Shown: positions 40,868-57,984, counted from the first letter of the stretch. The stretch is DNA of 64,000 nucleotides from an uncultured Bacilli bacterium (GCA_944329425.1 CALVIG010000003.1:51460-115459); one strand, 5' to 3'. The notes: generated by a model from the letters alone, not told the origin. Translations and numbers: made by a program.

Positions 40868-41917
40868 GTGAATATGAAGGAATTTATTAAAACTAATAGT
40901 ATAACAAATCTTTTAGGTTTCTTTTTTTATGAAGGCTATAATTATTGTATAATTAAATCGATAACATCAAAAAAGATAGGATTTTATTTGATTATGAAAC
41001 TAAAAGATTTAAAATGTGAAAATTATGATATTAATCTAGATGAATATATTGAATTTAGAGAAAATGTTAAAAAAAATATGATACACCCAGAATGGCTTGG
41101 TGATTTTTCAAAAGAAGATTTATTAAACCTATTAAATAATAACTCTAAAATATGGATTTACTATTTAGATAAAGAACCTGTTTGTTCTATGATGTTAATT
41201 CCAGCAGATAAAAATGCTTTATTAAAATTTAAATTAGGTTTAGATTACAAAGTCGTAGCTGACTATGGTCCTATGTTTGTTAATCCAAAATACGTGGGTA
41301 ATGGTTTACAGTATCAGATGCTGCTTGAATTGGACAATTATTGTATTAATATGGGATATGAATATGCAGTAACAACTATTCATCCAGATAATATTTATTC
41401 AATCAATAATATAATAAAAGATGATTTTAAGCTAATTAACTATAAGGGTTTCAAAAGAGGCGTAAGAAATATTTATTTGAATTGTTTGGGTAAAAATCAT
41501 ATTCAAAAAATATTAACATTTATTATTTGTGATAATAAATTATTATTATTAAAAGGAAGTAACAAAGATCCTCAATTTCATAAATCATTTTGGTATGTTG
41601 TAACAGGAGCCGTAGAAAAAGAAGATAAAAGTTTAATGGATGCTGTTATACGTGAAATAAAAGAAGAAACGAATTTGAATGCATTAGAGATAAAAAGAAT
41701 TCCATTTTTATTTAAATATGAGTCATTGGGCAAAAAATGCTTAGAACATTGCTTTATAACATATTCTAATAATGATAATATAATTTTAAATGAAGAAAGT
41801 ATTGATTATAAATGGTGTGATCTAGAAGAATTTATAGATTTAATTAATTGGTATGATTCAAAGGCTAAATTAAAAGAAATATTAACTAAATATTTTAATA
41901 ATAAACTTAAAAAATAA
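40868..41917 (+). CDS. GNAT acetyltransferase-like N-terminal domain fused to a NUDIX hydrolase domain
   Basis: Nudix box GAVEKEDKSLMDAVIREIKEETNL in the C-terminal half. The N-terminal half shows a GNAT-like fold signature (YVGNGLQYQML). A terminator hairpin follows at 41921-41945. Confidence 0.55.
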   Translation: MNMKEFIKTNSITNLLGFFFYEGYNYCIIKSITSKKIGFYLIMKLKDLKCENYDINLDEYIEFRENVKKNMIHPEWLGDFSKEDLLNLLNNNSKIWIYYLDKEPVCSMMLIPADKNALLKFKLGLDYKVVADYGPMFVNPKYVGNGLQYQMLLELDNYCINMGYEYAVTTIHPDNIYSINNIIKDDFKLINYKGFKRGVRNIYLNCLGKNHIQKILTFIICDNKLLLLKGSNKDPQFHKSFWYVVTGAVEKEDKSLMDAVIREIKEETNLNALEIKRIPFLFKYESLGKKCLEHCFITYSNNDNIILNEESIDYKWCDLEEFIDLINWYDSKAKLKEILTKYFNNKLKK

Positions 41918-41998
41918 GTTAAGAAACCTTTTGGGTTTCTTTTTTTGTTATCACCCAAATAGGTATTAATCATAAAATACTTTGAAGGAAGTGATAAT

Positions 41999-42055
41999 AT
42001 GGTTATAGTAGATGCTGGACATCAAAGGTGCTTTTTAACAAGGTATATAAAATAA
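41999..42055 (+). pseudogene. 5' fragment of a cwlC-type N-acetylmuramoyl-L-alanine amidase (Amidase_3) gene, interrupted after MVIVDAGH
   Basis: RBS GAAGGAAG followed by ATG. The encoded MVIVDAGH is the start of the IDAGHGGxDPGA catalytic motif. The frame runs into element DNA and stops after 18 codons. The 3' remainder is at 58005-58270. Confidence 0.6.
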
Positions 42056-42191
42056 AGAACCCGCTAGCTATAAGTCATTATACATAAAAGATAAATTAGT
42101 TGAAAAAATAGAGAAAATAGCAATTGAAAACAATACTTCATTCAATAATGTTATTATATCAATGATAGAAACATGCCTAAAACAAAAGTAA
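42051..42191 (+). pseudogene. Start-less remnant ORF with ribbon-helix-helix-like C-terminus at the left edge of the element
   Basis: Frame NKEPASYKSLYIKDKLVEKIEKIAIENNTSFNNVIISMIETCLKQK* has no usable start codon. A terminator hairpin follows at 42187-42220. Confidence 0.3.
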
Positions 42192-42428
42192 GACTCTTTA
42201 TAATTGATGTCTTACTTTTTAAATTTTAGAAATATTTATTAGTTTATCTACTAGTTTTTATAAACAGCATAAGATATTTTAAAATATATATTTTTTAAAG
42301 ATTGTTTTGTGATATTTTTATTATTTTTCTAATATAAAAATAACATTTACTTTTATATTAGAAAGATATATAATAACACCCAAAAAGGAGCAATGCGTTT
42401 AATTATAATTATATTGGTATAAAGTCTT

Positions 42429-42660
42429 AGATATTGAGTAGTACATCTAAACACTTTTACTTTTGCAGTAAATGTTTGTGGCATTGTAGTGGGTGTGCTA
42501 CTATGATTATAGAGTTTTATTTTTTTGATTTATTTTTTTATATAAATCTCGGATGCGTTTTTGTTAATAAAATCCCATCAGGGATTTTTTTTGTGCAATT
42601 TTATTTAGCACGAGCACCGCCTTTCTGTAAAAAAAAATTATTTTTACGGAAAGGAGTTTA
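42429..42660 (+). promoter_or_regulatory. Conserved leader upstream of sigma-like regulator copy A (paralogous to 54777-55011)
   Basis: About 85 nt are roughly 80% identical to copy B (AGATATTGAGTAGTACATCTAAACACTTTTACT ... GGGTGTGCTACTATG). This is followed by a terminator-like hairpin plus T-run (42570-42593), the shared CACCGCCTTTCT box and a second hairpin abutting the RBS. Confidence 0.4.
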
Positions 42661-42661
42661 A

Positions 42662-43147
42662 ATGAATATACCTAGGAGACGAAAAAGTAAGGATAATCCT
42701 TATACCTTAGGCGTTAATAATGAAGGTAAGTACTTAGTTTCATTTAAAAATGCTAATAATTATAAAGTGTGTATTGAAGTTAGTTATTTAATTTATAAAA
42801 CATTAAACGAATTTGAATTAAAAGATTTATCTCAGTTAAATGAATTTGATAGACATATAGAACATCTAGATTTAATGGAAAATGATGAAATTCTATATAA
42901 AAGAATTATAAAAAAAGAGTTATCTATTGAAGAAATAGTTAATATTAAAATTTCTAAAGAAAATTTAATTTATGCTATAAATAAACTTTCTATAAATCAA
43001 AAAACAAGAATAATGAAATACTATTTTGATGGTAAAACAGAAAGTGATATTGCTTTGGAAGAAAATGTGACACAGCAATCTGTTCATATAGGTTTAAAAC
43101 GAGCAATAAAAAAATTAAGAGAAATTTTAAAAAGTTTAGAAAAATAG
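42662..43147 (+). CDS. Sigma-70 region-4-like HTH regulator (small alternative-sigma/late-activator-like protein), copy A
   Basis: 161 aa. C-terminal MKYYFDGKTESDIALEENVTQQSVHIGLKRAIKKLREILK fits the sigma-70 region 4 HTH pattern. About 50% identical to the ORF at 55012-55491. Confidence 0.55.
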   Translation: MNIPRRRKSKDNPYTLGVNNEGKYLVSFKNANNYKVCIEVSYLIYKTLNEFELKDLSQLNEFDRHIEHLDLMENDEILYKRIIKKELSIEEIVNIKISKENLIYAINKLSINQKTRIMKYYFDGKTESDIALEENVTQQSVHIGLKRAIKKLREILKSLEK

Positions 43148-43180
43148 TCTGTTATTTTTCATTTTAGTGAGGAAATAGGT

Positions 43181-43245
43181 GAAGGGATATATATCCCTTT
43201 TGCCTATCTTTATTAATTAGGTATGATCTTTGACAACTTAATATT
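43181..43245 (+). promoter_or_regulatory. Conserved terminator hairpin plus TTGACA-containing 21-nt box downstream of sigma-like copy A
   Basis: Hairpin GAAGGGATATATATCCCTTT, then GATCTTTGACAACTTAATATT. The same arrangement, nearly identical, occurs at 55531-55611 after copy B. It lies about 80 nt upstream of the tail-collar gene. Confidence 0.4.
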
Positions 43246-43323
43246 ATTAATTTAAAAATGTCTAGTGAAATTCCAGTAGAAAAAATTTTATGATGAAGCT
43301 GTTAAAGAAAGGAGAATGATATT

Positions 43324-44466
43324 ATGAATTTAACAGAACAAACTGTAAGTGGAACCAATGAAGTTAGCTTACAAGATTCACTTAATGCTTCTTTATTGAA
43401 GTTAAAAGTGACAATGGGTGCAAATACAGTAGCACCAGAAGATACAGATTGTTTTATCTATGTAGATAAAGCGTCTAGTGCAAATCCTACGGAAGAAAAG
43501 AAAAGTTATCTTTTTGAACTTTCAGAACCATTAAGATATTGTAATGGAGTAGGAGATGAGTTATTACAAGAAATAAAAATTGTAAATAACGATGTTGTAA
43601 TGAAAACAACGGTAACAAGAAAGGTAGGAGTATCTGAAGATGGTACTTTAAGTGTTTTAGAAACACCTACAACAGAGGAGATTGATGCATATCCAGTTAC
43701 TTTATTTGAAGGAATTAATTATATTTATACTAATTATTCAAATGCGGATATTGAATTAATATATCCAAAAGATACTGATGAAAACAAAATGTTTTTAAAC
43801 AATGCCATTTATTGTAATCACAAGTTAAAAAATGATGGTGAATTTTCGCTTGATGATATTTACTTTAAAGACGCATTTACTAAAACAGAAGATAAATTAA
43901 ACCTAGAAGTAAATAATGCTTCAGTTGATTGTATTACTTCGAATAATAATAAATTTAGCTTAGATAGTGAAGGTAATTTAATTGTTAATTCAATTACTAC
44001 TGCGCAAGGGTCACAAGGCTCTTCATCTGATAATGAAACAATATGTAATTTGATATATCCAGTTGGTAGTATTTATATGTCTGTTAATAGTACTGATCCA
44101 ACAACTTTATTCGGCGGTACATGGGAACAGTTAAAAGATAGATTCCTACTTGGAGCTGGTGATTCCTATGGAAACGGAGCAACCGGTGGAGAAGCAAACC
44201 ATACATTAACTATTAATGAGATGCCAAGCCACACTCACACTCAAAATCCACATACACACAGTGTTAGAGCAAAAGGGTTTAATGGTACTTCGAACTTGAA
44301 TGGATATTATATGCTACGTAGAAATAGAAATGATGATAGCTATGATGATGTCGATCCAAATGCAGCTATGAGTGCAACAGCAACTAACCAAAATACTGGT
44401 GGAGGAGCAAGTCATAATAATATGCCACCATACTTAGTAGTATACATGTGGAAAAGGGTATCTTAA
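43324..44466 (+). CDS. Phage tail-collar (receptor-binding fibre tip) domain protein
   Basis: C-terminal PVGSIYMS...LFGGTWEQL...RFLLGAG...GGEANHTLTINEMPSHTHT...HNNMPPYLVVYMWKR is the tail-collar/MdpB-type domain. The N-terminal part is fibre-like. Confidence 0.6.
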   Translation: MNLTEQTVSGTNEVSLQDSLNASLLKLKVTMGANTVAPEDTDCFIYVDKASSANPTEEKKSYLFELSEPLRYCNGVGDELLQEIKIVNNDVVMKTTVTRKVGVSEDGTLSVLETPTTEEIDAYPVTLFEGINYIYTNYSNADIELIYPKDTDENKMFLNNAIYCNHKLKNDGEFSLDDIYFKDAFTKTEDKLNLEVNNASVDCITSNNNKFSLDSEGNLIVNSITTAQGSQGSSSDNETICNLIYPVGSIYMSVNSTDPTTLFGGTWEQLKDRFLLGAGDSYGNGATGGEANHTLTINEMPSHTHTQNPHTHSVRAKGFNGTSNLNGYYMLRRNRNDDSYDDVDPNAAMSATATNQNTGGGASHNNMPPYLVVYMWKRVS

Positions 44467-44855
44467 TGATAACCCTTCCCATTAAGGATCATTTAATTAT
44501 GCGAGCACTTAATAATTATTCTAATACTGTTTATGAACTTAATATTTTAAAAAGAAGATTAAATTTACTTGTAAATTATGAATCCGAAATTGCTTTGGAA
44601 AAAAATAGGTTAATAAATTTAATAGATAACGAACAACAGGTGATAAAGCAAATGGAAAATGATTTACAAAATTTATCTGGTATTGAAAATAAACTGTATT
44701 ATGAAATTGTTATTAATGGTACTAACGTAACAAAGGCAATAGATAAAGTAGCAACAAATGAATTTATTGATACTTCAACTTTATGGAAAAATTATTATCC
44801 TAAAGTAAAAAAAGAAATAGATAAATTATATCTACTATTATCTAAAGAAAATTAA
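44448..44855 (+). CDS. Hypothetical protein (possible fibre chaperone/accessory), translationally coupled
   Basis: Overlaps the 3' end of the previous gene. 135 aa. No recognisable family. Confidence 0.35.
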   Translation: MEKGILMITLPIKDHLIMRALNNYSNTVYELNILKRRLNLLVNYESEIALEKNRLINLIDNEQQVIKQMENDLQNLSGIENKLYYEIVINGTNVTKAIDKVATNEFIDTSTLWKNYYPKVKKEIDKLYLLLSKEN

Positions 44856-44875
44856 ATATAGAAAGGAGATTAGCA

Positions 44876-47800
44876 ATGAAAGAAATAGAGTTAATTGGAA
44901 AACGAAAAGCAAGAGAAAAACATTTCTTAAAAGAAAATGGAATAATAACAGCTAATGTCTATGATGAAGATATTCATTTTTTAAAAGATGGAAAATATGA
45001 AGAGATTGATAATACACTTATTGAGGAAAATGGCTATTTAGTAAATAAAAATAATGCGTATAAAGTTTCTTTTGCAAAGAAAAGTAAAGATGAACTAATG
45101 GAAATGAGTATAGGTAATAATTATATTAAAACAATGTTGGTTTATCAAAAAGAAGTGGATTTAAAAGAAAATATTACTCAGTCCAAACTTCACAAAAACG
45201 TATGTTATCCTAATATAATAGAAAATGTTGATTTAGAATATAATATTATGCCTGGAAAGGTAAAAGAAGCAATTATATTAAAAAATAAAAATGTTGATTT
45301 AGAAAAATTAGTTTTCATAATTGAAACAAACACAAAATTAGAATTAAAGGAAAATAAAAAAATTATTTCAACGGTAGACAATAATAATTGTTTCGAATTT
45401 GACGCACTTTATATGATAGATGCTAACTTTAAAACAAATAATAATATTAATTATAAATTAACTAAAAGAGATGATGATATATATCAACTTGAATTAATTG
45501 TTGACAAAGAATGGTTAAATAATGAAGAAACAAAATATCCAGTAATAATTGATCCAACAATAACAAATTCCGGTCAGAACAATAGTGTCTATGATACTTA
45601 TATTTATCCTGGTGATACTGGAGTTGATAGAAATAGTCAAGATATTTTAAAAGCAGGGGTTGAAAGAATTGATGGCGTTGATAGGGAAAATAGAACGTTA
45701 ATAAAATTTGATTTGCCTGTAATAGGTACCGGTAGTCAAGTAATAGGTGCCAATTTACAGTTATATGGTTATCCAAAAATACCTTCAGATAGTGAAACAG
45801 ATTTGTTGTTGGCTCATAGAATCACCACAAATTGGGATGAAAGTACTGCTACATGGGATAATATGAATGACAAATTTGATCCGTTGGTTGAAGGTTTAAT
45901 ATTTGTTGGAAGAGGATACTATGATTTTGAAAACGAAACTATTCATCCATTTAATTGTGGTGGTGATATTACTAGATTAGTGAGAAAATGGTACACAGGA
46001 ACGCCTAATTATGGTATTATGTTGAAACAAAATCTATTGAAGTATAATGCAAATATATTACCAGCATTTTATTCAAACAATAATAATTCTACTGGTATAA
46101 ATCCTAAGCCTGTATTATCTATATCATATAGAAATCAAAATGGAATAGAAAATTATATGAATTATCAGACAAAAGGTTTTTATGATGGCGAAGCATATGT
46201 CAATAACTATAATGGAAATTTGACCACAATATTTGATATTGGTTCAACAATAAGTGGAAAAATGCCAATTGGTTTAAATCTTATATATAATACAAATGAT
46301 GTTGTGTTAGAAAAAAATTATGGTTATGGATTAGGGTATAAATTAAATTTACACCAAACTATAAAAGAACAACTTATTGATTCTAAAACATATTTAGAGT
46401 ATTGTGATGAAGATGGTACTTTACATTATTTTTTAAATGAAAAAGCTATGTTTGATGAAAATGGTTATAATATCATTAATACACAAAACATTTATTATGA
46501 TGAAGATGGGTTGGATATGACTATAACAAAAAATAGTAATAGTTATGTGCTTAAAGATAAAAATGGAAATACTATGACATTTATTAAAAATGGTGATAAA
46601 GCATATTTAACTAAGATAGAAGATGTTAATGGTAATAAAAATACTATTGAATATAGTCCTGAGAATGCAATAGTAAAAATAATAGATGCTAATGATAATG
46701 AAATAAATTTAGAATATGGTGCAACTACAATAACTATAATAAGTCCAGAACAAACAGTTACTTTAAGTTATTTAAATAACCAAGTAGTCAGTATAAATAG
46801 TTTAACAGGAATAACTCAATTCGAATATAATGCAAATAATATTATATCTAAAATTATTGATATTGATGGTATGAAAACTACTTATGATTACTATGATCAA
46901 AAACCATACAAAGTAAAAAAAGTATCTGAATATGGTGCTGAAAATACTTTGGGAGAATATTTTGAGATGTTGTATGATTTTGATTCTACAACTATAGTAG
47001 ATTCAAAAGAAAACGCAAAAAATATTATATTTAATTCTCAAGGTAGTGTAGTATCAATTAGTGGTTTGAAGGATAAGGATGATATAAAAAATTCGTATGG
47101 GCTTAGCCAAATAAATGGCACATCTGGAATTACCATTAATAATGGAAACAATAATAAATTATTAAGAACAGAGATACCACTTAAATATGTTAAAAATTTA
47201 TTATCTAATACAAGTTTTGAAAAAAATGTAATTAATTTTACTAGTACAGAAGATGTTAATATGATTATAACTAATGAAACCTCGGAAACAGGTGCTAATA
47301 GTTTAAAAGCTACTAGTACAATTAATAATCAAGCATTAACACAAAGTATAGATGTAGAAAAAGGTGATTATTATACATTTAGTAGTTATATTAAAAATAC
47401 TGGTGATGTTAAATTAATTCTTAGTTACTTTGACAAGAATGGGATTATTATTCAATCTCAAAGTGAATTAATAAAGCCGAGTGATGTTTTTGAAAGATAT
47501 GATGTAACAATAAAGTATCCTGAAGATGCAACAAGTAATTTAACTTTAAAAATAATTTTAGAAGATGCTGGAACAGTATATGTTGATGATGTACAGTTGG
47601 AAACCGGTGAAGTTGCAAATAATTATAATTTATTAGAAAATTCAGATTTTTCTAATGGTTTCTCTGATTGGGAGGTTTCAGCTAGTGATAATTTAACAGG
47701 TGATTTATTATCTATAAATGATGTATTTGAAATTGTTTCTTTGCCAGACAATTTAAACGCACTTAAAATAAAAATGAATCCTGCTTATAATTATATTATG

Positions 47801-50800
47801 GAAAAAACATATAATATAAGTGGAAAAGGCGGAGATGTATTTAATCTTTCATTTTGGTATAAAAATGAAGGTGTAGATTCAGATTTATCAGAGTATTATG
47901 GAAGCAGACCATATATTATTTTTCATTATACAAATCAAGAAGATGGACATTGCATTATTCCTACACCGTTACTTAATATAAATGATCAATCATGGCAATA
48001 TGTTTCGAATGATTTTACTGCTGAAAAAGATTATAGTTCTATTACGATTAGTATTCAACATCAATATACTGCAAATGATTTTTATATTACAAATATGAGT
48101 TTATTTAAAGATATAAGAAATGTTTATTATGAGTATGATGAATTTGGAAATGTAATATTAGAAAAAAATTTAGATGATAATAGTAATAAATATAATTATG
48201 ATAAAGATAATAAATTGATTCAGATGACTAATCCAAAAGGCAAAAATTTTACTATTGAATATGATAATATTTTTAAAAATAGGACTATCAATGGTATGAC
48301 TGATATGGGGGTATCTAATCAATTAAAATATGACAATAATAATAATCCAATTATATCTAGGGTTCAAAAAAATAATATTATAGGTGATATAACAGATGGT
48401 TTATATAAAATAAGATTAAAGGGAAGCGATATATATTTAAGAAATATATCAAATGATATTAAATGTAAATTAGAAAACTGTAACCATGATATATGGAAAT
48501 TAGAAAAGATAGATGAATATGTTAAAATCCATCACTCTATTCTTACTGATAAATATTTTACTGTTCAGAATAATAATATTATTTTATCAAATGAAAATGG
48601 AGATAATTCACTATTTAAGTTGAAGAAAAATAAAAACGGAAGTTATTCTATAAAATTAAAACTAGAGGATAAATACTTAAAATATAATAATTCAGGAATA
48701 GAAATATCAACTTTGATAGATGAAGATTACAGTTTTGAATTTTATTTTGAAACTGTAGATTGTGATTTATTTATTGAAAATAAAGCGGAGTATACAGAAA
48801 ATGGTGCGTTTATAAGTCGAATAATTGATTCATTAAATCATTCTTATAATTATGAAATTGATCAGGAAAAAGGTTTGACTAAATCAGAAACAAACGAAAA
48901 AGGTATTAAAACTAATTATAATTATAATTCTAAAAAGAAACTTATTTCATCTATATGCAACGATAAAAGTGTATTTTATGAATATAATGATAAAAATTTG
49001 TTAAGTAAAGTTAAGCATGGTAAGAAAGAATATAATTTTATTTATGATGAATTTTCTAATGTTAAGACAATAAAAATGGGTAATAATATTAGGCTTATTA
49101 CATATAATTATGATACAAATGGAGATTTGATTTTATTAGATTATGGGAATGAAGGCTCTCTAAATTATGAGTATGACGAATTTTCTAGATTAAGTAAAAA
49201 AACTAAAGAAAATGATACCTATGAATATAAGTATAATGGAAGTGGAGATTTGGTAAAAATTTTATCAAATAATTACATAACTAAATATACTTATGATTTA
49301 GCTAAAAGATTGAGTAAATATAATTTTGATGATTTTATAATTAAATATAAATATGACTCAAATGAAAATATAACGAATATTAAGTATAGTTTGGGTAGCA
49401 TAAATAATGAAATAATAAATACTTTTAATGATGATGATTTGATAATTAATACGTCATTTTCAAATAAAAAAATAAATTATACCTATGATTTACTAGGTAG
49501 ATTAAAAAGTGAAAAAATAAACAATATATATGAAACAAGTTATGAATATATAGAGAATGGAAAAAATACTTCTACTCTATTGAAAAAGCTTAAAACAGGT
49601 AATAATATATATTCATACAAATATGATAAATTAAATAATTTAACGCATGTTTATTATAATGACGACTTATTAACTAAATATTATTATGATGACTATAATC
49701 AGCTTATAAAGGAAATCGATTTTGAAGATAAAAAAATTATAAAATATAAATATGATAATGTAGGTAATATGTTATACAAAAAAGTATATGCTTTGGATAC
49801 CTATGACTTTATTACCCAAGATATATATTATTACAATAATGATGATTGGCAAGATCAATTAACTTCGTTTAATAACACCGCTATTACTTATGATGAAATA
49901 GGGAATCCATTAACTATAGGTAATAATATTAATCTAAACTGGATTAATGGTAGAGAACTAGAAACTTATAATGATGGTACTAACCTAATTTCGTATAAAT
50001 ATAATTCTGAAGGTATAAGAATAAGTAAAAAGGTGAATAACACGGAAACGAAATATTATTTAGAGGATAATGATATAATATTTGAAAAGAGAGGAAATAA
50101 TGTGCTATACTATTTACGTAATGATATAGATGATTTGTTTGGATTTATGTATAATAACGATTTATATTATTATGTAAAAAATAATAAGAATGATATTGTA
50201 GGTATATTAGATAACAGTTATAATATAGTAGCTAAGTATAAATATGATTCTTGGGGAAAAGTAATTTCTATAACTGATAGTCAAGATAACGATATATCAA
50301 ATAATGTTAATAATATAGGAAATATAAATCCGTTTAGATATAGATCTTATTATTATGATTCAGAAACTAAATTATATTATTTAAATAGTAGATATTATAA
50401 TCCGGAATGGAAAAGATTTATTAATCCTGATTCTTATGCTGGACAAATTGGTGGAAATATATTACTTCACAATATATATATATATTCTTTAAATAATCCT
50501 ATTTTATATAGCGATGAAAGTGGTAATATAGTAGGATTAACATCAGTAGCTGCGGGTGTGTTATACGCTTTTGGAATTGCTGTATTTAAAGCTTCTGTGT
50601 ATGTAGCTGTTAGTGGTTTAGTTGTTGGGGGCTCTATTTATGTGGGAAAAGCCATATCCAATAATAAAAGTAAATCAAAATCAAAGACGAAAGCACAAAG
50701 TAAATCTAAAATAAAAACTGCTGTGGCTGCAAAAGCAAAAACTAGTACAAAAAAATATTCGAACAACAATAAGCCATGTACAGAAGCCTATTTTACAAAA

Positions 50801-51079
50801 GATATGAGAGATGTTGTACGTGGTGAAAGATTAACAATTGAAGAAACAATTGCAAAAGTTAATGCTAAGGGAAATGTTATGTGTGATAATTATTGGCCCG
50901 CTAAAGAAGTTGCTACTGCCATTTCTCCAAATCCAATATGTGAAATAAATAGCATTCAGCATAAAGGATATAAATATTACTATCACTTTCATCCAAATAG
51001 AGATACTTATAAGGATGTACATATATTCTTTGAAGGATTACCATTAGAATTTTTTGAAGGGAAGGGAAATTGTAGATGA
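44876..51079 (+). CDS. Rhs/YD-repeat polymorphic toxin (2067 aa): DNRLRE-like domain, CBM-like and ricin-B-like lectin modules, YD repeats, RHS core, variable C-terminal toxin domain
   Basis: RBS GAAAGGAGA. Dozens of YD-type repeats (e.g. YKYDSNENITNIKY, YTYDLLGRL). RHS core end motif FRYRSYYYDSETKLYYLNSRYYNPEWKRFINPD...NIYIYSLNNPILYSDESGN. N-terminal region with DNRLRE-like segment (DRENRTLIKFDL). No signal peptide. Confidence 0.85.
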   Translation: MKEIELIGKRKAREKHFLKENGIITANVYDEDIHFLKDGKYEEIDNTLIEENGYLVNKNNAYKVSFAKKSKDELMEMSIGNNYIKTMLVYQKEVDLKENITQSKLHKNVCYPNIIENVDLEYNIMPGKVKEAIILKNKNVDLEKLVFIIETNTKLELKENKKIISTVDNNNCFEFDALYMIDANFKTNNNINYKLTKRDDDIYQLELIVDKEWLNNEETKYPVIIDPTITNSGQNNSVYDTYIYPGDTGVDRNSQDILKAGVERIDGVDRENRTLIKFDLPVIGTGSQVIGANLQLYGYPKIPSDSETDLLLAHRITTNWDESTATWDNMNDKFDPLVEGLIFVGRGYYDFENETIHPFNCGGDITRLVRKWYTGTPNYGIMLKQNLLKYNANILPAFYSNNNNSTGINPKPVLSISYRNQNGIENYMNYQTKGFYDGEAYVNNYNGNLTTIFDIGSTISGKMPIGLNLIYNTNDVVLEKNYGYGLGYKLNLHQTIKEQLIDSKTYLEYCDEDGTLHYFLNEKAMFDENGYNIINTQNIYYDEDGLDMTITKNSNSYVLKDKNGNTMTFIKNGDKAYLTKIEDVNGNKNTIEYSPENAIVKIIDANDNEINLEYGATTITIISPEQTVTLSYLNNQVVSINSLTGITQFEYNANNIISKIIDIDGMKTTYDYYDQKPYKVKKVSEYGAENTLGEYFEMLYDFDSTTIVDSKENAKNIIFNSQGSVVSISGLKDKDDIKNSYGLSQINGTSGITINNGNNNKLLRTEIPLKYVKNLLSNTSFEKNVINFTSTEDVNMIITNETSETGANSLKATSTINNQALTQSIDVEKGDYYTFSSYIKNTGDVKLILSYFDKNGIIIQSQSELIKPSDVFERYDVTIKYPEDATSNLTLKIILEDAGTVYVDDVQLETGEVANNYNLLENSDFSNGFSDWEVSASDNLTGDLLSINDVFEIVSLPDNLNALKIKMNPAYNYIMEKTYNISGKGGDVFNLSFWYKNEGVDSDLSEYYGSRPYIIFHYTNQEDGHCIIPTPLLNINDQSWQYVSNDFTAEKDYSSITISIQHQYTANDFYITNMSLFKDIRNVYYEYDEFGNVILEKNLDDNSNKYNYDKDNKLIQMTNPKGKNFTIEYDNIFKNRTINGMTDMGVSNQLKYDNNNNPIISRVQKNNIIGDITDGLYKIRLKGSDIYLRNISNDIKCKLENCNHDIWKLEKIDEYVKIHHSILTDKYFTVQNNNIILSNENGDNSLFKLKKNKNGSYSIKLKLEDKYLKYNNSGIEISTLIDEDYSFEFYFETVDCDLFIENKAEYTENGAFISRIIDSLNHSYNYEIDQEKGLTKSETNEKGIKTNYNYNSKKKLISSICNDKSVFYEYNDKNLLSKVKHGKKEYNFIYDEFSNVKTIKMGNNIRLITYNYDTNGDLILLDYGNEGSLNYEYDEFSRLSKKTKENDTYEYKYNGSGDLVKILSNNYITKYTYDLAKRLSKYNFDDFIIKYKYDSNENITNIKYSLGSINNEIINTFNDDDLIINTSFSNKKINYTYDLLGRLKSEKINNIYETSYEYIENGKNTSTLLKKLKTGNNIYSYKYDKLNNLTHVYYNDDLLTKYYYDDYNQLIKEIDFEDKKIIKYKYDNVGNMLYKKVYALDTYDFITQDIYYYNNDDWQDQLTSFNNTAITYDEIGNPLTIGNNINLNWINGRELETYNDGTNLISYKYNSEGIRISKKVNNTETKYYLEDNDIIFEKRGNNVLYYLRNDIDDLFGFMYNNDLYYYVKNNKNDIVGILDNSYNIVAKYKYDSWGKVISITDSQDNDISNNVNNIGNINPFRYRSYYYDSETKLYYLNSRYYNPEWKRFINPDSYAGQIGGNILLHNIYIYSLNNPILYSDESGNIVGLTSVAAGVLYAFGIAVFKASVYVAVSGLVVGGSIYVGKAISNNKSKSKSKTKAQSKSKIKTAVAAKAKTSTKKYSNNNKPCTEAYFTKDMRDVVRGERLTIEETIAKVNAKGNVMCDNYWPAKEVATAISPNPICEINSIQHKGYKYYYHFHPNRDTYKDVHIFFEGLPLEFFEGKGNCR

Positions 51080-51804
51080 TAATAAGAGATAAAGTGACTG
51101 GTGATTTATATAAAAATTTAATGAATTATATTATTTCAAAAAGTGACGTTTTATCAGTATCAGTAAATCTTATTTATAATAAGAAAGTTACGGATAAATT
51201 TATGAAAATTATTACATATAATAATGAGTATGATATTAATAATATTCTAAATGATGTTCCTAAAAAACTAATAGAGGAAATTTCTGAGGAAAACAAGAAT
51301 AATACTTTAATTTTTGATGAAGAATATATAAATAATGAAAAAAGATATTTAATAAAATATATTCAAAATTTTTCAGAAGATGATAGGGTATCTCTCATAT
51401 ATAAAAGAAGAAAAACTTATATAAAAAATATGATTTATTGGCTAGTTTATGAATATAAAACAACTAATTGGTTACGTAAATTTAAAACTAGTATTATTTA
51501 TAAAAAGCGTAAAAATTCATCGTATACTACTTATTATCTCAATCTGACGAAGGATTTAATAGATGATATCCTTAGCAGAAATTCATTTGATGATTGGAAT
51601 TTTCCATTATCTGTTGAAGATATTGCATTTTTTAAGGATAAACAATGTTTATTATGTTCAGAAACTCATGAAAATATGTGGGATTTATATTGTAAAGATC
51701 AAAATGAATATAAGTATTTTAAATCTATTGGTATTAAATTTAATGATTTTAAATATAAATCAGAAGGAAAAAAAGGATTACCTTACAATAATTATTATAT
51801 TTAA
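51076..51804 (+). CDS. Putative cognate immunity protein of the Rhs C-terminal toxin
   Basis: Start overlaps the Rhs stop (ATGA). Cytoplasmic 242-aa protein with no homology recognised. The position is typical for Rhs immunity genes. Confidence 0.45.
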   Translation: MIIRDKVTGDLYKNLMNYIISKSDVLSVSVNLIYNKKVTDKFMKIITYNNEYDINNILNDVPKKLIEEISEENKNNTLIFDEEYINNEKRYLIKYIQNFSEDDRVSLIYKRRKTYIKNMIYWLVYEYKTTNWLRKFKTSIIYKKRKNSSYTTYYLNLTKDLIDDILSRNSFDDWNFPLSVEDIAFFKDKQCLLCSETHENMWDLYCKDQNEYKYFKSIGIKFNDFKYKSEGKKGLPYNNYYI

Positions 51805-51908
51805 TTAGATTTAGGTATTATTAATTTGAACTTTAACTCTAAAATTTGCAAAAGGCATTTTGATCGAGTTATCATTATGTCTTTTAATATTTTTCAAAAG
51901 GAAAAATT

Positions 51909-52208
51909 ATGATAAATTTTATAATAAATTATTGGATTGAGATATTATTGACGTCTATTACATCAGGAATTATATATATTTTTAAACAATATATGGGTTT
52001 AAAAAACGGAATGAAATCTCTTTTAAGAAATGAAATAATAAGAATATATGATAATCAAGAAAAATTAGGATATTGTCCTAGTTATATGAAAGAGAACATT
52101 AAAGAAATGTATGAAAACTACCATAAATTAGGTGGTAATGGAATGGTTACAAAAATGACTAATAAATTATATGAATTACCAAATGTAAAGGAGGATGATA
52201 AAGTATGA
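51909..52208 (+). CDS. BhlA/UviB-like holin-family protein (N-terminal transmembrane helix plus coiled region)
   Basis: 99 aa. Single N-terminal transmembrane segment. First gene of a three-gene overlapping cassette that ends in a lysin. Confidence 0.35.
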   Translation: MINFIINYWIEILLTSITSGIIYIFKQYMGLKNGMKSLLRNEIIRIYDNQEKLGYCPSYMKENIKEMYENYHKLGGNGMVTKMTNKLYELPNVKEDDKV

Positions 52209-52432
52209 AAGAAAAATTGATTTTATCTATTATTAATTTACTTAAAGTAAAATCAATAATAACGCTACTTACATTTGTAGCGTTCTTTTATTTATCTATT
52301 TCAGAAAAAATAGGTAGCGATAATTTTATGCTGATTATAGGAATGATTGCGACTTATTTCTTTAATAAAGATAATTCTGAAAAATTAAAAAATAAATCTA
52401 TGGAAGTGGTAAAAGATGAGCAAGATAACTAA
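52205..52432 (+). CDS. Small two-transmembrane holin-like protein
   Basis: 75 aa. Two hydrophobic helices and a charged C-terminus (KDEQDN). It overlaps both neighbours (ATGA-type coupling). Confidence 0.45.
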   Translation: MKEKLILSIINLLKVKSIITLLTFVAFFYLSISEKIGSDNFMLIIGMIATYFFNKDNSEKLKNKSMEVVKDEQDN

Positions 52433-53153
52433 CTTAATATTTAAAAATGCTAATCATTATGTAACATCTGGCTTTGGTAATAGAAAAGTAATGAATACCA
52501 AAGGAGGCTATACAAGTTCTTTTCATAATGGAACAGATTATGGGACAAATAATGTTAAATTACCACAATATGCTATTGAAAATGGAACTGTATTAAGTTG
52601 TGGTACGGATTCTTTAGGAGGAAAATTTGTTTGGGTTAAATATCCTAGAATAAATGTTAAAATGCTTCATTATCATTTATCTAGTGTTAATTGTAAAACT
52701 AATCAAATAGTATCTAAGGGAACACTTTTAGGATATACTGGTATGAGTGGTAAGGCAACAGGTATTCATTTGCATTTGTCTATTGTTGATCTATCTAATG
52801 GAGAGTTTTTGAATCCTGAGACGTATTCTTATACTGAACAAAGTGAAACATCTGTGCCTGTAATTAATAATTCATTTTTTGGTAATAAATCATATTTTAA
52901 GCGTGGTGATTCATGTGACAATATAGGTAAAGTATGTTATTTTTTTGCAGACTATTTTTATGGATATTTTTGTAAAACTAAAGAGGAGGCTCATAAGTTA
53001 TTAGATGGTAATCTATTTGGACCATATCTTGAGAAATGGGTAAAAGAGTTTCAAGAAAGAGCTAAAGCAGAGGGAAGGTATTATGATAACATTGATGGCT
53101 ACATTGGACCTAAAACTTTAAAAACTTTAGAAAGCTATGGGTTTATTTATTGA
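52416..53153 (+). CDS. M23-family peptidoglycan endopeptidase with C-terminal PG_binding_1 domain (endolysin-like)
   Basis: HNGTDYG ... GMSGKATGIHLHLSI (HxxxD/HxH zinc motifs of LytM/M23). C-terminal ...YYDNIDGYIGPKTLKTLESYGF is the peptidoglycan-binding repeat. No signal peptide. Confidence 0.75.
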   Translation: MSKITNLIFKNANHYVTSGFGNRKVMNTKGGYTSSFHNGTDYGTNNVKLPQYAIENGTVLSCGTDSLGGKFVWVKYPRINVKMLHYHLSSVNCKTNQIVSKGTLLGYTGMSGKATGIHLHLSIVDLSNGEFLNPETYSYTEQSETSVPVINNSFFGNKSYFKRGDSCDNIGKVCYFFADYFYGYFCKTKEEAHKLLDGNLFGPYLEKWVKEFQERAKAEGRYYDNIDGYIGPKTLKTLESYGFIY

Positions 53154-53284
53154 TTAATAAAGGGGTACAAATTATTATTTTGTATCCTTTTAAAATATTC
53201 ATATTTACTAAAATAATTAAATATGATAATATAAACTTATAAAATGTGTTGATTAGCAGTAAATAATATTTATTAGGAGAAATC

Positions 53285-54058
53285 ATGACAAAGAGATTAA
53301 AACTATTTATAATAATTACTGTATTATTAATTATAATAATATTTATTTTCAGATTATTTCCTTTTGGATATAATCAATATAAAATTAGCTTGGATTTAAG
53401 TAAAATTACTTTGCCTAAATTTTCATATGATATTAAACAGGAACAAAAAGGTATAATAACTTTTAAATCACATAGAAGTAAATTTATAATTCAAGATGAA
53501 ATAAATGATATGTTTGAATCTTATGATAAATATATTTGTAATAACAAAGTGTATTATTATGATAAAAATCATAATATAACATTTATGGATTATGAAATCT
53601 CAAATAGATTTTTTACTAATAATATTAAATTAATATATCATAGTGGTAAATTTAGTGATAATGAATGTGCAAAAGTATTTGATTATAAACAAATGGATTA
53701 CAGAATTATCCCGGTTAATAGCACAGGTCATTGTTATATTAAAGAAGATAAGTTTGAATATAGAGATGAAAATAATGAATTACATAATGTGTATTATGAA
53801 TGTTTTGGTAATTTAGCATTTAAAAATGGAATGAATAAAATGGAATATATTGATAGAGTTTTATTTTTTAGATGGATTTCTATGAAGGACATAATTAATT
53901 ATTTAAATTATAAAACAAAAGATAAAACTTTTATGAAAAAAATAATAGATAAAAAACATACGTTATATTATAATAATGATTTTTATTTGTTGAAGTGTAA
54001 TAATAAAAATATATATATAGGTGAAAAGTATGATGAATTTAAAAGTTATTGTAATTAA
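53285..54058 (+). CDS. Hypothetical protein with N-terminal transmembrane anchor
   Basis: ORF with RBS AGGAGA. Extremely AT-rich. No family recognised. Confidence 0.35.
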   Translation: MTKRLKLFIIITVLLIIIIFIFRLFPFGYNQYKISLDLSKITLPKFSYDIKQEQKGIITFKSHRSKFIIQDEINDMFESYDKYICNNKVYYYDKNHNITFMDYEISNRFFTNNIKLIYHSGKFSDNECAKVFDYKQMDYRIIPVNSTGHCYIKEDKFEYRDENNELHNVYYECFGNLAFKNGMNKMEYIDRVLFFRWISMKDIINYLNYKTKDKTFMKKIIDKKHTLYYNNDFYLLKCNNKNIYIGEKYDEFKSYCN

Positions 54059-54412
54059 AAATAAATTTGATATAAAATAATCAAATTTATTTTTCTATGC
54101 ACCTATAACAAATTTCAGAAATAGAAAAGTTATATCTTTTTGAAAGTAAGTAAAGTCTTTCTAATTAAATAATGACTTTACCATACTCTATTCCACTTAA
54201 CATACTTTTTTGAATATTTAGTATTATTGCTAATTTTTTTAACTTAGATTTTAAGTTTTTCTTATTCTTAAAATATTTTTAGGAATGATTTTTAAATTCA
54301 ACTCTGTAATATTATAAATTCTTTTAGAATCATTTTTAATAAATTAACAACAGAAGAGAGAAAAATTATATATTGGATTTATTTGGACAATAAATGAAAG
54401 AAGGAAAACAAA

Positions 54413-54613
54413 ATGAGAAAAGACTCTTTAAATAGTGTGGCATCAGCAGTAAAAGAGTTCAAAAAATATATAAAAGAGAATGAAAATAATATTGATAAAT
54501 CGAAAAAAATTATATTAAGGCAGGCTCTAAAAGCAGCGCGCTCTATTATAAGCTCTAATAGAACATATTTTAATAGCCAAGAGTTAAGAGAATTATTTAA
54601 TGATAATGATTAA
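54413..54613 (+). CDS. Hypothetical small protein
   Basis: 66-aa ORF with RBS GAAGGAAAA. Confidence 0.3.
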   Translation: MRKDSLNSVASAVKEFKKYIKENENNIDKSKKIILRQALKAARSIISSNRTYFNSQELRELFNDND

Positions 54614-54776
54614 AAGTAAAATTATATTTCATTTTTTAAAAACATTAAAATAGTAAAGTTTTAAATCATGTTTTTATTAGTTTTATATTATAAAAATCTC
54701 ATTTACTTTTCTGATGTAAAAGTATATAATAGCACTTAAAAAAAAGCAGTGCTTATTATAAAGTATAAGCGATTTT

Positions 54777-55011
54777 AGATATTTGAGTAGTACATCTATA
54801 AACTTTTACTAGTGCAGTAGTTTAGTAGCATTGCTATTAGGGTGTGCTACTATGTATGAAAAGATATTTAATAGTCAATATTTTATTTTTAATGCCGTAT
54901 GGGGCTTGTTCGTTCAAGTCCCGTGCGGCATTTTTTTTATACCTGTTTTTATTATGTTTAAAATTCGTTCACCGCCTTTTCTATTGAATAACTCAATAGA
55001 AAGGAAGGTAA
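54777..55011 (+). promoter_or_regulatory. Conserved leader upstream of sigma-like regulator copy B (paralogous to 42429-42660)
   Basis: Same conserved 5' block, internal hairpin plus T-run (54894-54938), CACCGCCTTTCT box and RBS-proximal hairpin CTTTCTATTGAATAACTCAATAGAAAG. Confidence 0.4.
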
Positions 55012-55491
55012 ATGAATAATCCAAAAAGACGCAAAAGTAAAGATAATCCATATACTTTAATTTATAATTCACAAGATGATAAATATATTATTTCTTTTAA
55101 TGATTCTAGTAACCATAAAATTATTTTTGAAATAGATCGTTCTTTATATATGTTATTTAATGAATTTGAATTAGAAGACTTATCAGAGTTAAATGAATTT
55201 GATAGACATATAGAGCATCTTAATATAATGGAGAGTGATGAGATTCTATATAAAAGAACCCTGAAAAAGAGTTTATTAGTAGATGACATTGTTGATAAAA
55301 AATTAGAAATGGAAACATTGAGAGAAGCTATAAATGAACTTCCAATGACGCAGAAAAGGAGATTAAAAAAGTACTATTTTGAAAATAAAACGCTGGAAGA
55401 TATAGCAAAAGATGAACATTGCTCAAAAGTGGCTGTTAAATATAGCATTGATTGTGCAATTAGTAATTTAAGAAAAAAATTAAAAAGTTAA
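55012..55491 (+). CDS. Sigma-70 region-4-like HTH regulator, copy B
   Basis: 159 aa. Paralogue of 42662-43147 (shared KSKDNPYTL, LNEFDRHIEHL, KYYF...K..S blocks). Confidence 0.55.
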   Translation: MNNPKRRKSKDNPYTLIYNSQDDKYIISFNDSSNHKIIFEIDRSLYMLFNEFELEDLSELNEFDRHIEHLNIMESDEILYKRTLKKSLLVDDIVDKKLEMETLREAINELPMTQKRRLKKYYFENKTLEDIAKDEHCSKVAVKYSIDCAISNLRKKLKS

Positions 55492-55530
55492 ATTTTTAGG
55501 CTTAACTTTTAGGCTAGAAGTGAGGAAATA

Positions 55531-55611
55531 GATGGAAGGGTAAAATATCCTTTCCATCTGTTTTTGATTTTAATAACAAAACACAGAAGTTGATCTTTGA
55601 CAACTTAATAT
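55531..55611 (+). promoter_or_regulatory. Conserved terminator hairpin plus TTGACA box downstream of sigma-like copy B
   Basis: GATGGAAGGGTAAAATATCCTTTCCATC hairpin, then GATCTTTGACAACTTAATATT (identical 21-mer to copy A). Confidence 0.4.
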
Positions 55612-55880
55612 TTATTCATCAGATACGTTCTTATTGTTCTGGAGCACGTTAACAAGTACGCTTGTCGGTAAATACTTGGTTATAAAACTAGATGGCAACT
55701 AGTATTGCGAAGATAAATAATAAGGTTAAAGATACTTCTGTTCAGCCATAGACTCAATCATTGGGAGCAGTCCGGAGTGATCCTCGGGAGAGTGAAAATC
55801 TCATGGAATTAGTTAGCCACTAATCGTCTGGTGAATGTTAAAAGTACTTGTTTATATTAAAATGGAAGGGAATTTATTAA

Positions 55881-56081
55881 ATGAAAAAGTATAAAGTAAA
55901 AATAAAATTAATATTTGAGACTACTATGTATCATTCACAGACGAGTTTGAAAAAGACTAAAGAAGACATTAATAGGGTTATAACACATTATTTAAAGGGT
56001 AAAAAACTTAATATTTTAAATTTATTTAATACTACACCGCGAATTATTTGTAAGGTGGAAAAAGATGATAGAAAACAATGA
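55881..56081 (+). CDS. Hypothetical small basic protein
   Basis: 66-aa ORF with RBS GGAAGGGAA. Upstream of the recombinase. Confidence 0.25.
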   Translation: MKKYKVKIKLIFETTMYHSQTSLKKTKEDINRVITHYLKGKKLNILNLFNTTPRIICKVEKDDRKQ

Positions 56082-56373
56082 TATTAATTAGTAAAAAAAT
56101 ATTATGATTAAAAAGTTTTGCATACATATAAATAGGAGGAAGATAATGTGAATGAAGTTGAATATAATGTTAATGTTTTTGTAAATAAAAATGGTTATAA
56201 TTCAAAAGATAAGAAAATAATTGAAAAAAAATTTAATCAAAAATTATTAAAGATAATTATTTCTATAGAAAAAAATAAAGTTTGTCAAGTTTAAAAAAAT
56301 AAAAAAAGTATAATTTATATTTTTAAAAATTTATTTTAGTATTAATTTGCAAGAAAGGAGGGTGCTTTCTATA

Positions 56374-57984
56374 ATGAAGAATAGAGTTGATATATATACA
56401 AGACTTTCCGATGAAGACAGATATAAAAAAAATAAAAGTGATGATAGTGAATCTATAGCTAACCAGAAAAGCATGTTATTAAAATATGCGTTAGAGCAGG
56501 GCTGGGAAGTAATAAATGTTTATAGTGATGATGATTATTCCGGTGCTGATAGTAATAGACCACAATTTCAAAAACTTTTAAAGGATTGTGAAAATGGCGT
56601 TGTTGATATAGTGCTTTGCAAAACCCAGAGTAGGTTTTCTCGTGATATGGAAGTCGTTGAAAGGTATATACATAATAAATTTATTGAATGGGGAGTACGC
56701 TTCGTTAGTATTGTTGATAATGCAGATACTGCAAATAAAGGCAATAAAAAATCTAGGCAAATTAATGGCCTTGTAAACGAATGGTATTTAGAAGATTTAT
56801 CAGATAATATTAGAAATTCATTGCAAAACAGAAGAGAAGATGGTTTATTTTTAGGATCTTTCGCTCCATATGGTTACATTAAGGATCCGGATAACAAAAA
56901 CAAGTTATTAATTGATCCCATTGCTGCTGAAATAGTAAGAGAAATATTTAACTTGTATAAATCCGGAGTTGGTTATTATAATATTGCCACAACTTTAAAT
57001 AAAAGAGGCGTTTTAACACCTTCTAATTATAAAAAAGAAAATGGTAGTAAATATGTATGCGGGAAAGCACGATTTAAAGAGAAAACAAAATGGTCTCAAG
57101 ATACGATTGCTAAAATATTAAGAAATGAAGTTTATATAGGTAATTTAGTGCAAGGAGTAAAAACTTATGTAAGTTATAAAAATCATAAATCTTATATTAA
57201 GCCTAAAAATGAATGGACTTATTCTTATGGTACACACGAACCTATAATAGATATGGAAACGTGGAATATGGTTCAATCTAAATTTAGATCTAGGACAAGA
57301 GTTAGTAGAACAACAGGTGAAGTATATTTGTTAAGTAAGAAGATTTATTGTAAAGAATGTGGTGGTGTATTTAATAGACAAATTTATCACACAAAAGACG
57401 GAAAAGTTCCATATATGAAATGTAAGGGAGTAAAGCTAGCTAATCGTGATTGTTCTAATAGGGAATCAATAAGATGTGAAAAAGTTGAAAAAATAATATT
57501 AGATGAATTGAATAAACAATTAGACTTATATTATAATGTTGATGAATTAGAAAGGTTATATGTTTTGCAAAAAAAATCTTTGAATAGTAGTACTTTATTA
57601 AAGAAAGAAACTTTAAATAATGAAAAACAAATATTACAGGAAAAAGTCGATAAAAAAAATGAACATTATAAAGCTTTATATGAAGATAAATTGGAGGGAA
57701 TAATTACGCAAGAAGACTTTATAATGTTTAGAGAAAAATTTTTAAATGAAATTGAAGAATATAAAAATAGAATCAAAATTATTGACGAGGAATTGAAATC
57801 GTTAAAATCGGAAGAAGAAAATGTTGAATCGAGCAGAGAAGTTTTTGAAAAATATAGACATATTAATAAACTTACAAAAGAAATTGTTGATGAATTTGTT
57901 GATGTTGTTAAAATAGGTAAAATAAATAAAGAAGATAATAGTAGAGATATAGATATTCATTTGAATATCATTAATTTAGATTAA
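56374..57984 (+). CDS. Large serine recombinase (resolvase/invertase N-terminal catalytic domain, recombinase domain, zinc ribbon, coiled-coil)
   Basis: N-terminal VDIYTRLSDEDR...IANQKSML (catalytic Ser region), YSGADSNRPQFQKLL, a C-terminal Cys cluster (CKECGG...CKG...C) and a long coiled-coil. The ATG at 56374 with RBS AGGAGGG is the preferred start. The stop lies 20 bp from the att core. Confidence 0.85.
   Translation: MKNRVDIYTRLSDEDRYKKNKSDDSESIANQKSMLLKYALEQGWEVINVYSDDDYSGADSNRPQFQKLLKDCENGVVDIVLCKTQSRFSRDMEVVERYIHNKFIEWGVRFVSIVDNADTANKGNKKSRQINGLVNEWYLEDLSDNIRNSLQNRREDGLFLGSFAPYGYIKDPDNKNKLLIDPIAAEIVREIFNLYKSGVGYYNIATTLNKRGVLTPSNYKKENGSKYVCGKARFKEKTKWSQDTIAKILRNEVYIGNLVQGVKTYVSYKNHKSYIKPKNEWTYSYGTHEPIIDMETWNMVQSKFRSRTRVSRTTGEVYLLSKKIYCKECGGVFNRQIYHTKDGKVPYMKCKGVKLANRDCSNRESIRCEKVEKIILDELNKQLDLYYNVDELERLYVLQKKSLNSSTLLKKETLNNEKQILQEKVDKKNEHYKALYEDKLEGIITQEDFIMFREKFLNEIEEYKNRIKIIDEELKSLKSEEENVESSREVFEKYRHINKLTKEIVDEFVDVVKIGKINKEDNSRDIDIHLNIINLD

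Follow-up and report, generated by a model that had tools for sequence, protein, structure and literature searches.

An Rhs protein tip of an unnamed family and its adjacent gene as a candidate toxin-immunity pair in an uncultured Bacilli bacterium

The stretch of DNA analysed here, referred to as the window, comprises 64,000 nucleotides from an uncultured Bacilli bacterium (GCA_944329425.1 CALVIG010000003.1:51460-115459) and encodes a giant protein of 2067 amino acids (aa), followed by an overlapping open reading frame (ORF) of 242 codons (Table 1). An earlier inspection of the nucleotide sequence, called the sequence-only reading below, had proposed that the C-terminal tail of the giant protein is an unclassified toxin and that the overlapping ORF encodes its immunity protein. 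Family matches show the 2067-aa product to be an Rhs protein with a complete Rhs-associated core: the RHS_repeat family PF05593 is matched with E=2.8e-18 and TIGR01643 with 53 bits, and TIGR03696 (Rhs_assc_core) covers aa 1790-1883 with 57.4 bits (cut-off 32.5) over model positions 1-75 of 76. The protein also contains a YD-repeat shell, a DNRLRE_dom at aa 240-416 (75 bits) and carbohydrate-binding-like or fibre-like domains at aa ~772-916; a Pfam scan found no LysM or other wall-binding domain. It has no signal peptide, its first 30 residues being hydrophilic (10-aa Kyte-Doolittle maximum 0.54), and no in-frame start further upstream is possible. The ORF ends in ...FFEGKGNCR-TGA. An alternative genetic code with TGA read as tryptophan, which the Tenericutes label of some relatives had raised, was rejected: the ORF holds 13 TGG codons and zero internal TGA, and with TGA used as a stop alone, code 11 applies.

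The Rhs core carries the motif INPDS within ...RYYNPEWKRFINPDS...NNPILYSDESGN and ends with YSDESGN at residue 1884. From this motif, the aspartyl autoprotease of the core is predicted to cut just before I1885 (N1884/I1885), and position 50528, given by the sequence-only reading as the start of the tail, is indeed the first codon past the motif (residue 1885, IVGL...). Relative to homologous Rhs proteins, identity amounts to 56-72% before residue 1884 and to 10-19% past that point. In comparison with the Rhs protein of the related locus L004, the core is 62-72% identical, residues 1884-1925 are 17% identical and the toxin domain is 28% identical.

The last 183 residues have the three-part layout that had been proposed, consisting of a hydrophobic segment, the Lys/Ser linker KSKSKSKTKAQSKSKIK and a Cys/His domain of ~100 aa. 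Residues 1884-1924 form the sole hydrophobic stretch of the whole Rhs protein (Kyte-Doolittle 19-aa maximum 2.07), and a comparable stretch directly follows the core motif in 22 of the 22 family members with enough upstream sequence (19-aa maximum 1.7-2.7). The initial description of two hydrophobic helices applies to the family only in part: the hydrophobic stretch itself is retained, but the second helix is not general, and most members have one Gly/Ala-rich stretch of 20-35 aa. This segment is predicted to act as a membrane-insertion or entry element of the released tail. Nearly all members whose upstream sequence suffices have a polar linker of ~30-78 aa, one has almost none, and the composition of the linker varies between K/S, K/E and P-rich versions. 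A positive-inside argument for the topology of the tail was dropped, as members differ in the net charge of this linker, which is not always positive. The GC content reaches 0.32 at positions 50500-51000, compared with about 0.21 nearby and with a range of about 0.18-0.39 over positions 40000-56000 (500-base windows); this bump probably stems from the Gly/Ala/Val-rich codons of the hydrophobic segment and not from a foreign origin.

The domain at the very end of the tail represents a new and rare family. With the window domain as query, a word-indexed search of 5.8 billion clusters retrieved one relative, a fragment of 85 aa, while an exhaustive phmmer search of 1.84 billion protein representatives provided 23 members, and a profile search of the 5.8 billion clusters added 19 more. 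A genome scan used an alignment of seven closer sequences as query. Full-length members are Rhs proteins of 1861-2060 aa, and fragments that include upstream sequence display the same Rhs core motif ahead of the domain. LXG, WXG and CdiA proteins, which had been suggested as alternative carriers, were looked for and not found; wherever the upstream sequence is long enough, the domain is attached to an Rhs core. The relatives belong to metagenome-assembled genomes (MAGs) of uncultured, very low-GC Bacillota, at least some of which apparently come from the gut. Neither a megablast search of positions 42000-54500 against plasmids and phages, nor a tblastn search of the toxin domain against plasmid and phage collections produced a match, and a scan of viral contigs revealed no relative, which means that the locus is not on record as cargo of a plasmid or phage.

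Two alignments, with 23 and 33 sequences, define the conserved residues (domain numbering C40/H74/H76/H86, corresponding to C2003/H2037/H2039/H2049). The consensus reads KPCT-A-(8)-G-RLT-EA-V-G-NVMCD-A-VA-...-GPE-...-G-YY-HYHP-(4-6)-H-HIWFY. In the family alignments C40, H74 and H76 are invariant and H86, I87, V32 and A46 are conserved in at least 90% of the sequences, a level that Y72 and W88 reach solely in the smaller, 23-sequence alignment. Neither alignment contains an invariant Arg or Lys. Among the Cys and His residues that had looked conserved in the window sequence, the Cys of VMC, the His residues of HFH and the His of VHI are indeed family-wide, but the others are not general: the Cys of KPC is common, but replaced by Tyr or Trp in one subfamily, and the Cys residues of PICEI and GNCR and the His of HKGY are limited to the closest relatives of the window domain.

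The AlphaFold2 model of the domain, based on the 33-sequence alignment with locus-derived rows left out, has a predicted local distance difference test (pLDDT) score of 90.9 and a predicted template modelling (pTM) score of 0.85, with the five models ranging from 89 to 91; it replaces a single-sequence model of the whole tail with a pLDDT of 43.5. Its topology is β1(5-10) β2(17-23) α1(25-33) β3(38-40) α2(43-53) β4(58-60) β5(74-76) β6(87-89), in which C40 closes strand 3, strand 5 contains H74 and H76, and strand 6 starts with H86. If β3-α2-β4-β5-β6 is read as one module with the strand order 1-4-3-2, C40, H86 and H74/H76 would stand side by side in the modelled sheet. The sequence-only reading could not assign the domain to a known toxin fold, and the searches that followed agree with it. 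A scan of all members found no Pfam, NCBIfam or PHROGs family at E<=10, a profile search against PDB sequences gave no match, and Foldseek comparison of the model returned nothing below E 0.4 in the PDB and nothing below E about 2 in BFVD. The only recurrent Pfam match, DUF6969, occurs in 4 of 33 members with a best E of 0.055 and is left as an unverified lead; no literature on DUF6969 was found. An HNH/EndoVII nuclease, considered because of the His-rich motif, was rejected, as no HNH-type toxin family of Pfam is matched and the model has no beta-beta-alpha finger. Among solved structures, the model bears a faint resemblance to VOC-type toxin domains and to nothing else.

The downstream ORF overlaps the stop codon of the Rhs gene, as had been noted at the outset: it starts at the ATG of AGATGATAA, with the junction reading ...AAT TGT AGA TGA TAA..., and the purine-rich GGGAAGGGA lies 8 nt 5' of this ATG. 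Its product has only six cluster-level homologues, and hydropathy predicts no membrane segment. The core of this family is formed by the C-terminal ~90 residues (W174, P177, E181, H198, E199, G219, F222), with the conserved module W-x-FP-x3-ED-x-FFK-x2-YCW-x-S-x2-HEE...EY-x-YLKSIGI-x-F, which is also retained in short forms of 157-188 aa. The 18 members showed no consistent Pfam match and no PHROGs or NCBIfam match, and the profile found nothing among PDB sequences at E<=10. Toxin and immunity families are thus both rare and unnamed, in line with the original proposal of a novel pair.

Linkage of the two families was assessed with hidden Markov models (HMMs) of both, run over every fetched locus (23 loci). 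An immunity match lies 3' of the toxin-domain match, in the same orientation and no more than about 20-270 bp away, both in the window itself and in about 18 distinct pairs among these loci. Homologues of the tail domain and of the 242-aa ORF hence exist and co-occur, and their pairing in the window is not due to chance. The immunity proteins of the window and of L004 are about 33% identical, and across the homologues immunity identity follows the divergence of the toxin. L001/L002 contain a truncated Rhs remnant with its tip split over three frames beside an intact 242-aa immunity gene, and L007/L008 a frameshifted toxin tip beside an intact 236-aa immunity gene; each of these decayed-toxin lineages was recovered from two independent samples. 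The proposed immunity role of the ORF is therefore upheld by its adjacency to the toxin domain in about 18 distinct loci, by its lack of a membrane segment and by its integrity in two lineages with a frameshifted toxin. Several related loci (L011, L012/L013, L014, L016, L017 and L021) also carry arrays of orphan Rhs C-terminal fragments past the main Rhs gene, with other, unrelated tips that are each followed by their own small ORF and some of which have no hydrophobic segment. Judged on sequence, linkage, divergence between core and tip, toxin decay and orphan arrays together are the standard signature of a polymorphic toxin-immunity module. This anatomy and gene linkage suggest that the tail would be toxic and that the 242-aa protein would neutralise it.

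Table 1. Features of the toxin-immunity locus in the window (positions counted from its first nucleotide) and degraded copies of the module in related loci (positions of the respective locus).
Feature	Position	Strand	Basis or remark
Small sigma-70 region-4 protein, cassette head	42662..43147	+	Domain match; same position in L004, L015
Tail-fibre-like protein (Gp10_C)	43324..44466	+	Domain/phage-family match; adjoins Rhs gene upstream
135-aa protein	44448..44855	+	Kept in L004 (E=9e-71); no family match
Rhs/YD-repeat polymorphic toxin gene, 2067 aa	44876..51079	+	RHS_repeat, DNRLRE and Rhs core matches
Rhs-associated core with predicted autoproteolysis motif, aa 1790-1884	50243..50527	+	TIGR03696
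Gly/Ala/Val-rich hydrophobic segment, aa 1885-1924	50528..50647	+	Kyte-Doolittle
Polar Lys/Ser/Thr-rich linker, aa 1925-1962	50648..50761	+	Sequence composition
Predicted C-terminal toxin domain of new family, aa 1963-2067	50762..51079	+	Family searches, alignment, AlphaFold2 model
C2003	50882-50884	+	Invariant
H2037	50984-50986	+	Invariant
H2039	50990-50992	+	Invariant
H2049	51020-51022	+	Nearly invariant
Immunity-like protein, 242 aa	51076..51804	+	Homologues, toxin linkage, ATGA overlap
Two small proteins (99 aa, 75 aa), candidate holins	51909..52432	+	Hydrophobic stretches, position
M23 peptidoglycan peptidase, endolysin-like, without signal peptide	52416..53153	+	Domain match
257-aa protein, N-terminal membrane anchor, last cassette gene	53285..54058	+	No family match; also in L003
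Degraded module copy	L001 8951-10419		Frameshifted Rhs/tip, intact immunity gene
Degraded module copy	L002 2762-4794		Frameshifted Rhs/tip, intact immunity gene
Degraded module copy	L007 136-1516		Frameshifted Rhs/tip, intact immunity gene

The pair is part of a cassette (42662-54058) that is bracketed by terminator-like hairpins at 42569-42588 and 54891-54932, the latter being strong. Ahead of the Rhs gene, a small sigma factor is followed by a tail-fibre-like protein and a 135-aa protein; homologues of the tail-fibre-like protein are encoded directly 5' of the Rhs gene in L004, L010, L011, L015 and L018, and the protein may provide the Rhs toxin with a means of binding a receptor. It carries a His-rich HTHTQNPHTHS stretch, which recalls the HxH motifs that bind metal in the short tail fibre tips of phage T4. 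Behind the immunity gene, the 75-aa protein has a clear hydrophobic segment of transmembrane scale, and the 99-aa protein reaches a 19-aa Kyte-Doolittle maximum of 1.54, just below the threshold of 1.6. Both match functionally unassigned phage families (phrog_4105 and phrog_13256) and are candidate holins by size, hydrophobic stretches and position only. Their homologues occur in L002, L004, L014 and L015, and L021 encodes a Phage_holin_4_1 protein at that position. The M23 peptidase has homologues in L004, L012/L013 and L021; L015 instead encodes a protein with CW_7 and LysM wall-binding domains at this place, and by domain content the lysin is subject to non-orthologous replacement between loci.

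The same gene order is set between housekeeping genes in L004/L005, and the arrangement of holin-like and lysin genes by the Rhs gene is kept in L004, L015 and L021. The cassette contains no capsid or tail genes; ordinary chromosomal genes flank it on one side, and a serine-recombinase element adjoins the other. The location of the pair in a conserved, phage-derived cassette suggests that the signal-peptide-less Rhs protein is released in the manner of a lysis cassette. No description of such a cassette of Rhs, sigma, fibre, holin and lysin genes was found in the literature.

The reading preferred here, with modest confidence, is that an Rhs polymorphic toxin carries the tail as its toxic cargo, that the 242-aa protein is the cognate immunity protein, that the two belong to undescribed families, and that the toxin is an enzyme, probably metal-dependent, which acts in the cytoplasm of the target cell. 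The YD-repeat shell would enclose the tail, and the aspartyl protease of the core would cut it off before I1885. Inside the producer, the toxin domain would be bound and blocked by the cytoplasmic immunity protein, whose translation would be coupled to that of the toxin, and the neighbouring holin-like proteins and M23 lysin would let the Rhs protein out of the cell, either by lysis or by a holin-dependent route. At the target cell, the Gly/Ala-rich hydrophobic segment would insert into the cytoplasmic membrane and the flexible linker would let the small domain reach the cytoplasmic side, where in kin it would be met by the immunity protein. There the domain would work as an enzyme whose catalytic centre consists of the Cys and the three His residues of neighbouring strands and would most likely hold a metal, as in VOC-type enzymes. 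Action in the cytoplasm, as opposed to pure membrane disruption, is proposed mainly because the immunity protein is cytoplasmic.

VOC-type toxins are one precedent. The structure 5T86_A has been described as a VOC-type toxin, and two more VOC-like toxin domains, one of which has a sheet bearing four conserved His residues, have been reported from Gram-positive polymorphic toxins (PMC9424270). The activities of VOC-type toxin domains are still unknown according to a 2026 review (PMC13460014). Several observations count against a metal-dependent enzyme of this type. The similarity of the toxin domain to the fold of a VOC module lies below the usual significance level, and its core of ~90 aa offers one complete beta-alpha-beta-beta-beta module after a hairpin and a helix, although VOC active sites need two; dimerisation would be the only source of a second one. 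Families of the glyoxalase/dioxygenase type match none of the 33 members in Pfam or NCBIfam, even at E<=10. The clustering of the Cys and His residues is a prediction from the strand order of the model, four protein ligands could equally make up a site of purely structural role, and a 2026 preprint treats 5T86 as a BECR fold. In addition, linkage to the immunity family has one exception, L019, in which an unrelated 104-aa ORF comes after the toxin domain. This toxin domain (L019 1110-1703) belongs to a divergent, YNYWE-type subfamily, and the 104-aa ORF trailing it may encode an alternative immunity protein.

The same residues could serve a different chemistry, in which the domain is a metal-independent, BECR-like ribonuclease that cuts tRNA or rRNA in the cytoplasm with two conserved His residues as general acid and base, as in EndoU and RNase A-type toxins. 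A cytoplasmic immunity protein is compatible with such an activity, and among the cargoes of Gram-positive Rhs/WapA and contact-dependent inhibition (CDI) toxins, RNases are the most frequent (PMC12704120, PMC13460014). The predicted topology of strand-strand-helix-strand-helix-strand-strand-strand nevertheless differs from the BECR core, in which a helix is combined with a four-stranded antiparallel sheet; zero Arg or Lys residues are invariant, the invariant Cys is foreign to BECR, and no Ntox or BECR family of Pfam is matched, which makes a ribonuclease unlikely. The lethal element could also be the hydrophobic segment, which would insert into the target membrane and dissipate its potential like Tse5-CT, leaving the Cys/His domain as an accessory or structural zinc module. 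This would account for the only hydrophobic stretch of the protein keeping its place straight past the cleavage site in all 22 members, and one Cys with three His residues could make a structural zinc site. Immunity proteins against membrane-acting toxins are, however, usually membrane-embedded, and the one encoded here has no membrane segment. Conservation is moreover centred on the C-terminal domain, in contrast to the merely 10-19% identity of the hydrophobic segment between homologues, and the immunity family is linked to the domain family and not to the segment, so that killing by the segment is quite improbable.

A tail directed at eukaryotes, or one that is inert cargo, with the downstream ORF encoding a chaperone or being an unrelated gene, would also fit an assignment of toxicity drawn from inference. 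Host-directed effectors are conceivable for relatives from MAGs that in part apparently derive from the gut, and Tc-type Rhs cocoons freed by lysis cassettes hit animal cells (PMC10847048). The strict linkage and co-divergence of the two genes, the orphan arrays of Rhs tips and immunity genes and the intact immunity genes beside decayed toxins are nevertheless hallmarks of interbacterial systems, and a tail without antibacterial function is accordingly very improbable. A metal-dependent cytoplasmic enzyme remains the preferred reading.

Systems of this kind, in which an Rhs polymorphic toxin is paired with an immunity gene, are known. The Gram-positive Rhs/WapA proteins, such as B. subtilis WapA and S. 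suis WapA-CT1, share with the window protein the YD-repeat shell, the Rhs-associated core and a variable tip followed by an immunity gene, as well as the orphan arrays of toxin tips and immunity genes and, in S. suis WapA-CT1, a DNRLRE domain near the N-terminus. Unlike WapA, the window protein has no Sec signal peptide and no LysM domain recognised by Pfam, its cargo is not a known nuclease tip and its tail includes a hydrophobic segment and a long polar linker. S. suis WapA is flanked by genes for a SecF-like protein and a sortase (SrtB), whereas the window Rhs gene is flanked by a tail-fibre-like gene and a holin/lysin pair. S8-VOC1, S8-VOC2 and CdiA-VOC (PDB 5T86 chain A; PMC9424270) are likewise small alpha/beta C-terminal toxin domains of polymorphic toxins with conserved His residues on the sheet surface. 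S8-VOC1, compared by its description only, has four His residues and the window domain a Cys and three His; the VOC domains ride on BetaH/S8 (ABP) toxins or CdiA and the window domain rides on Rhs.

The shell, the C-terminal autoproteolysis motif and the downstream immunity gene also recur in the Rhs effectors of type VI secretion systems (T6SS), including P. protegens RhsA, Photorhabdus laumondii Rhs1 and P. aeruginosa Tse5. The window protein differs from them by the absence of PAAR, prePAAR and a VgrG-binding N-terminus and by its Gram-positive (Bacillota) host. Hydrophobic helices in some T6SS Rhs effectors serve membrane entry or pore formation (in part PMC12704120); the hydrophobic segment of the window protein lies on the C-terminal side of the cleavage site, ahead of a distinct globular domain. 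In terms of release, the cassette resembles the C. difficile pathogenicity locus (PaLoc) with TcdR-TcdE-TcdL and the type 10 secretion of the Tc toxins of Yersinia entomophaga, in which a large toxin without signal peptide is likewise found near a small sigma-family regulator, holin-like proteins and a peptidoglycan hydrolase without signal peptide; the TcC subunit of Tc toxins is also an Rhs-type cocoon. In contrast to both, the cargo of the window cassette is apparently antibacterial and accompanied by an immunity gene, the cassette includes a tail-fibre-like gene, and an M23 peptidase serves as its predicted lysin, with a CW_7/LysM protein taking that place in L015.

What appears to be new is the toxin family, the immunity family, the tail built of segment, linker and domain, and an Rhs protein that has no signal peptide and is combined with a phage-derived release cassette. 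New enzymatic activities and antibacterial targets have already come to light through Rhs toxin tips, and the present one offers a confidently predicted fold, a candidate centre of one Cys and three His residues and a matching immunity family for controls. How Rhs proteins of >200 kDa are exported across the membrane and wall of Gram-positive bacteria is regarded as unresolved (PMC12704120). The window cassette leads to a concrete and testable model, in which release would be of the phage-lysis type, comparable to that of clostridial large toxins and Tc toxins. In communities that include these uncultured low-GC Bacillota, competition may be influenced by the system.

A more far-reaching and doubtful proposal is that the 12-kb cassette as a whole is a self-contained, phage-derived 'tailless bacteriocin', including a sigma switch, lytic release, fibre targeting and a new metalloenzyme. 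The dedicated sigma factor would switch the cassette on, the holin-like proteins and the lysin would free the ~240-kDa Rhs capsule, which has no signal peptide, and the tail-fibre-like protein would direct it to a competitor. The capsule would then bring a membrane-tethered Cys/His3 metalloenzyme of new fold to bear on a target that is new for antibacterial toxins. If true, this would amount to both a new Gram-positive route for the export and delivery of giant Rhs toxins and a new toxic chemistry.

Just downstream of the cassette, positions 55012-55491 encode a second sigma region-4 protein, which is 53% identical to the one at the cassette head. Beside it are a pemK RNA motif (55726-55806) and genes for a large serine recombinase (56347-57984) and TnpV (58310-58660), and the same stretch encodes a fusion of an EcoRI-methylase and a C5-methylase (59369-61474). 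The position of the second sigma gene beside the recombinase, TnpV and the methylase fusion indicates that a mobile element abuts the cassette. On the upstream side, an Abi_2 (abortive-infection-like) protein and a collagen-repeat/beta-helix protein are encoded at 36850-37779 and 39810-40724. Further away, the window contains a tmRNA gene (20262-20625), a tRNA-Thr(CGT) gene (30058-30131) and an L31 ribosomal-protein leader (6660-6691), which confirm its chromosomal Bacillota context.

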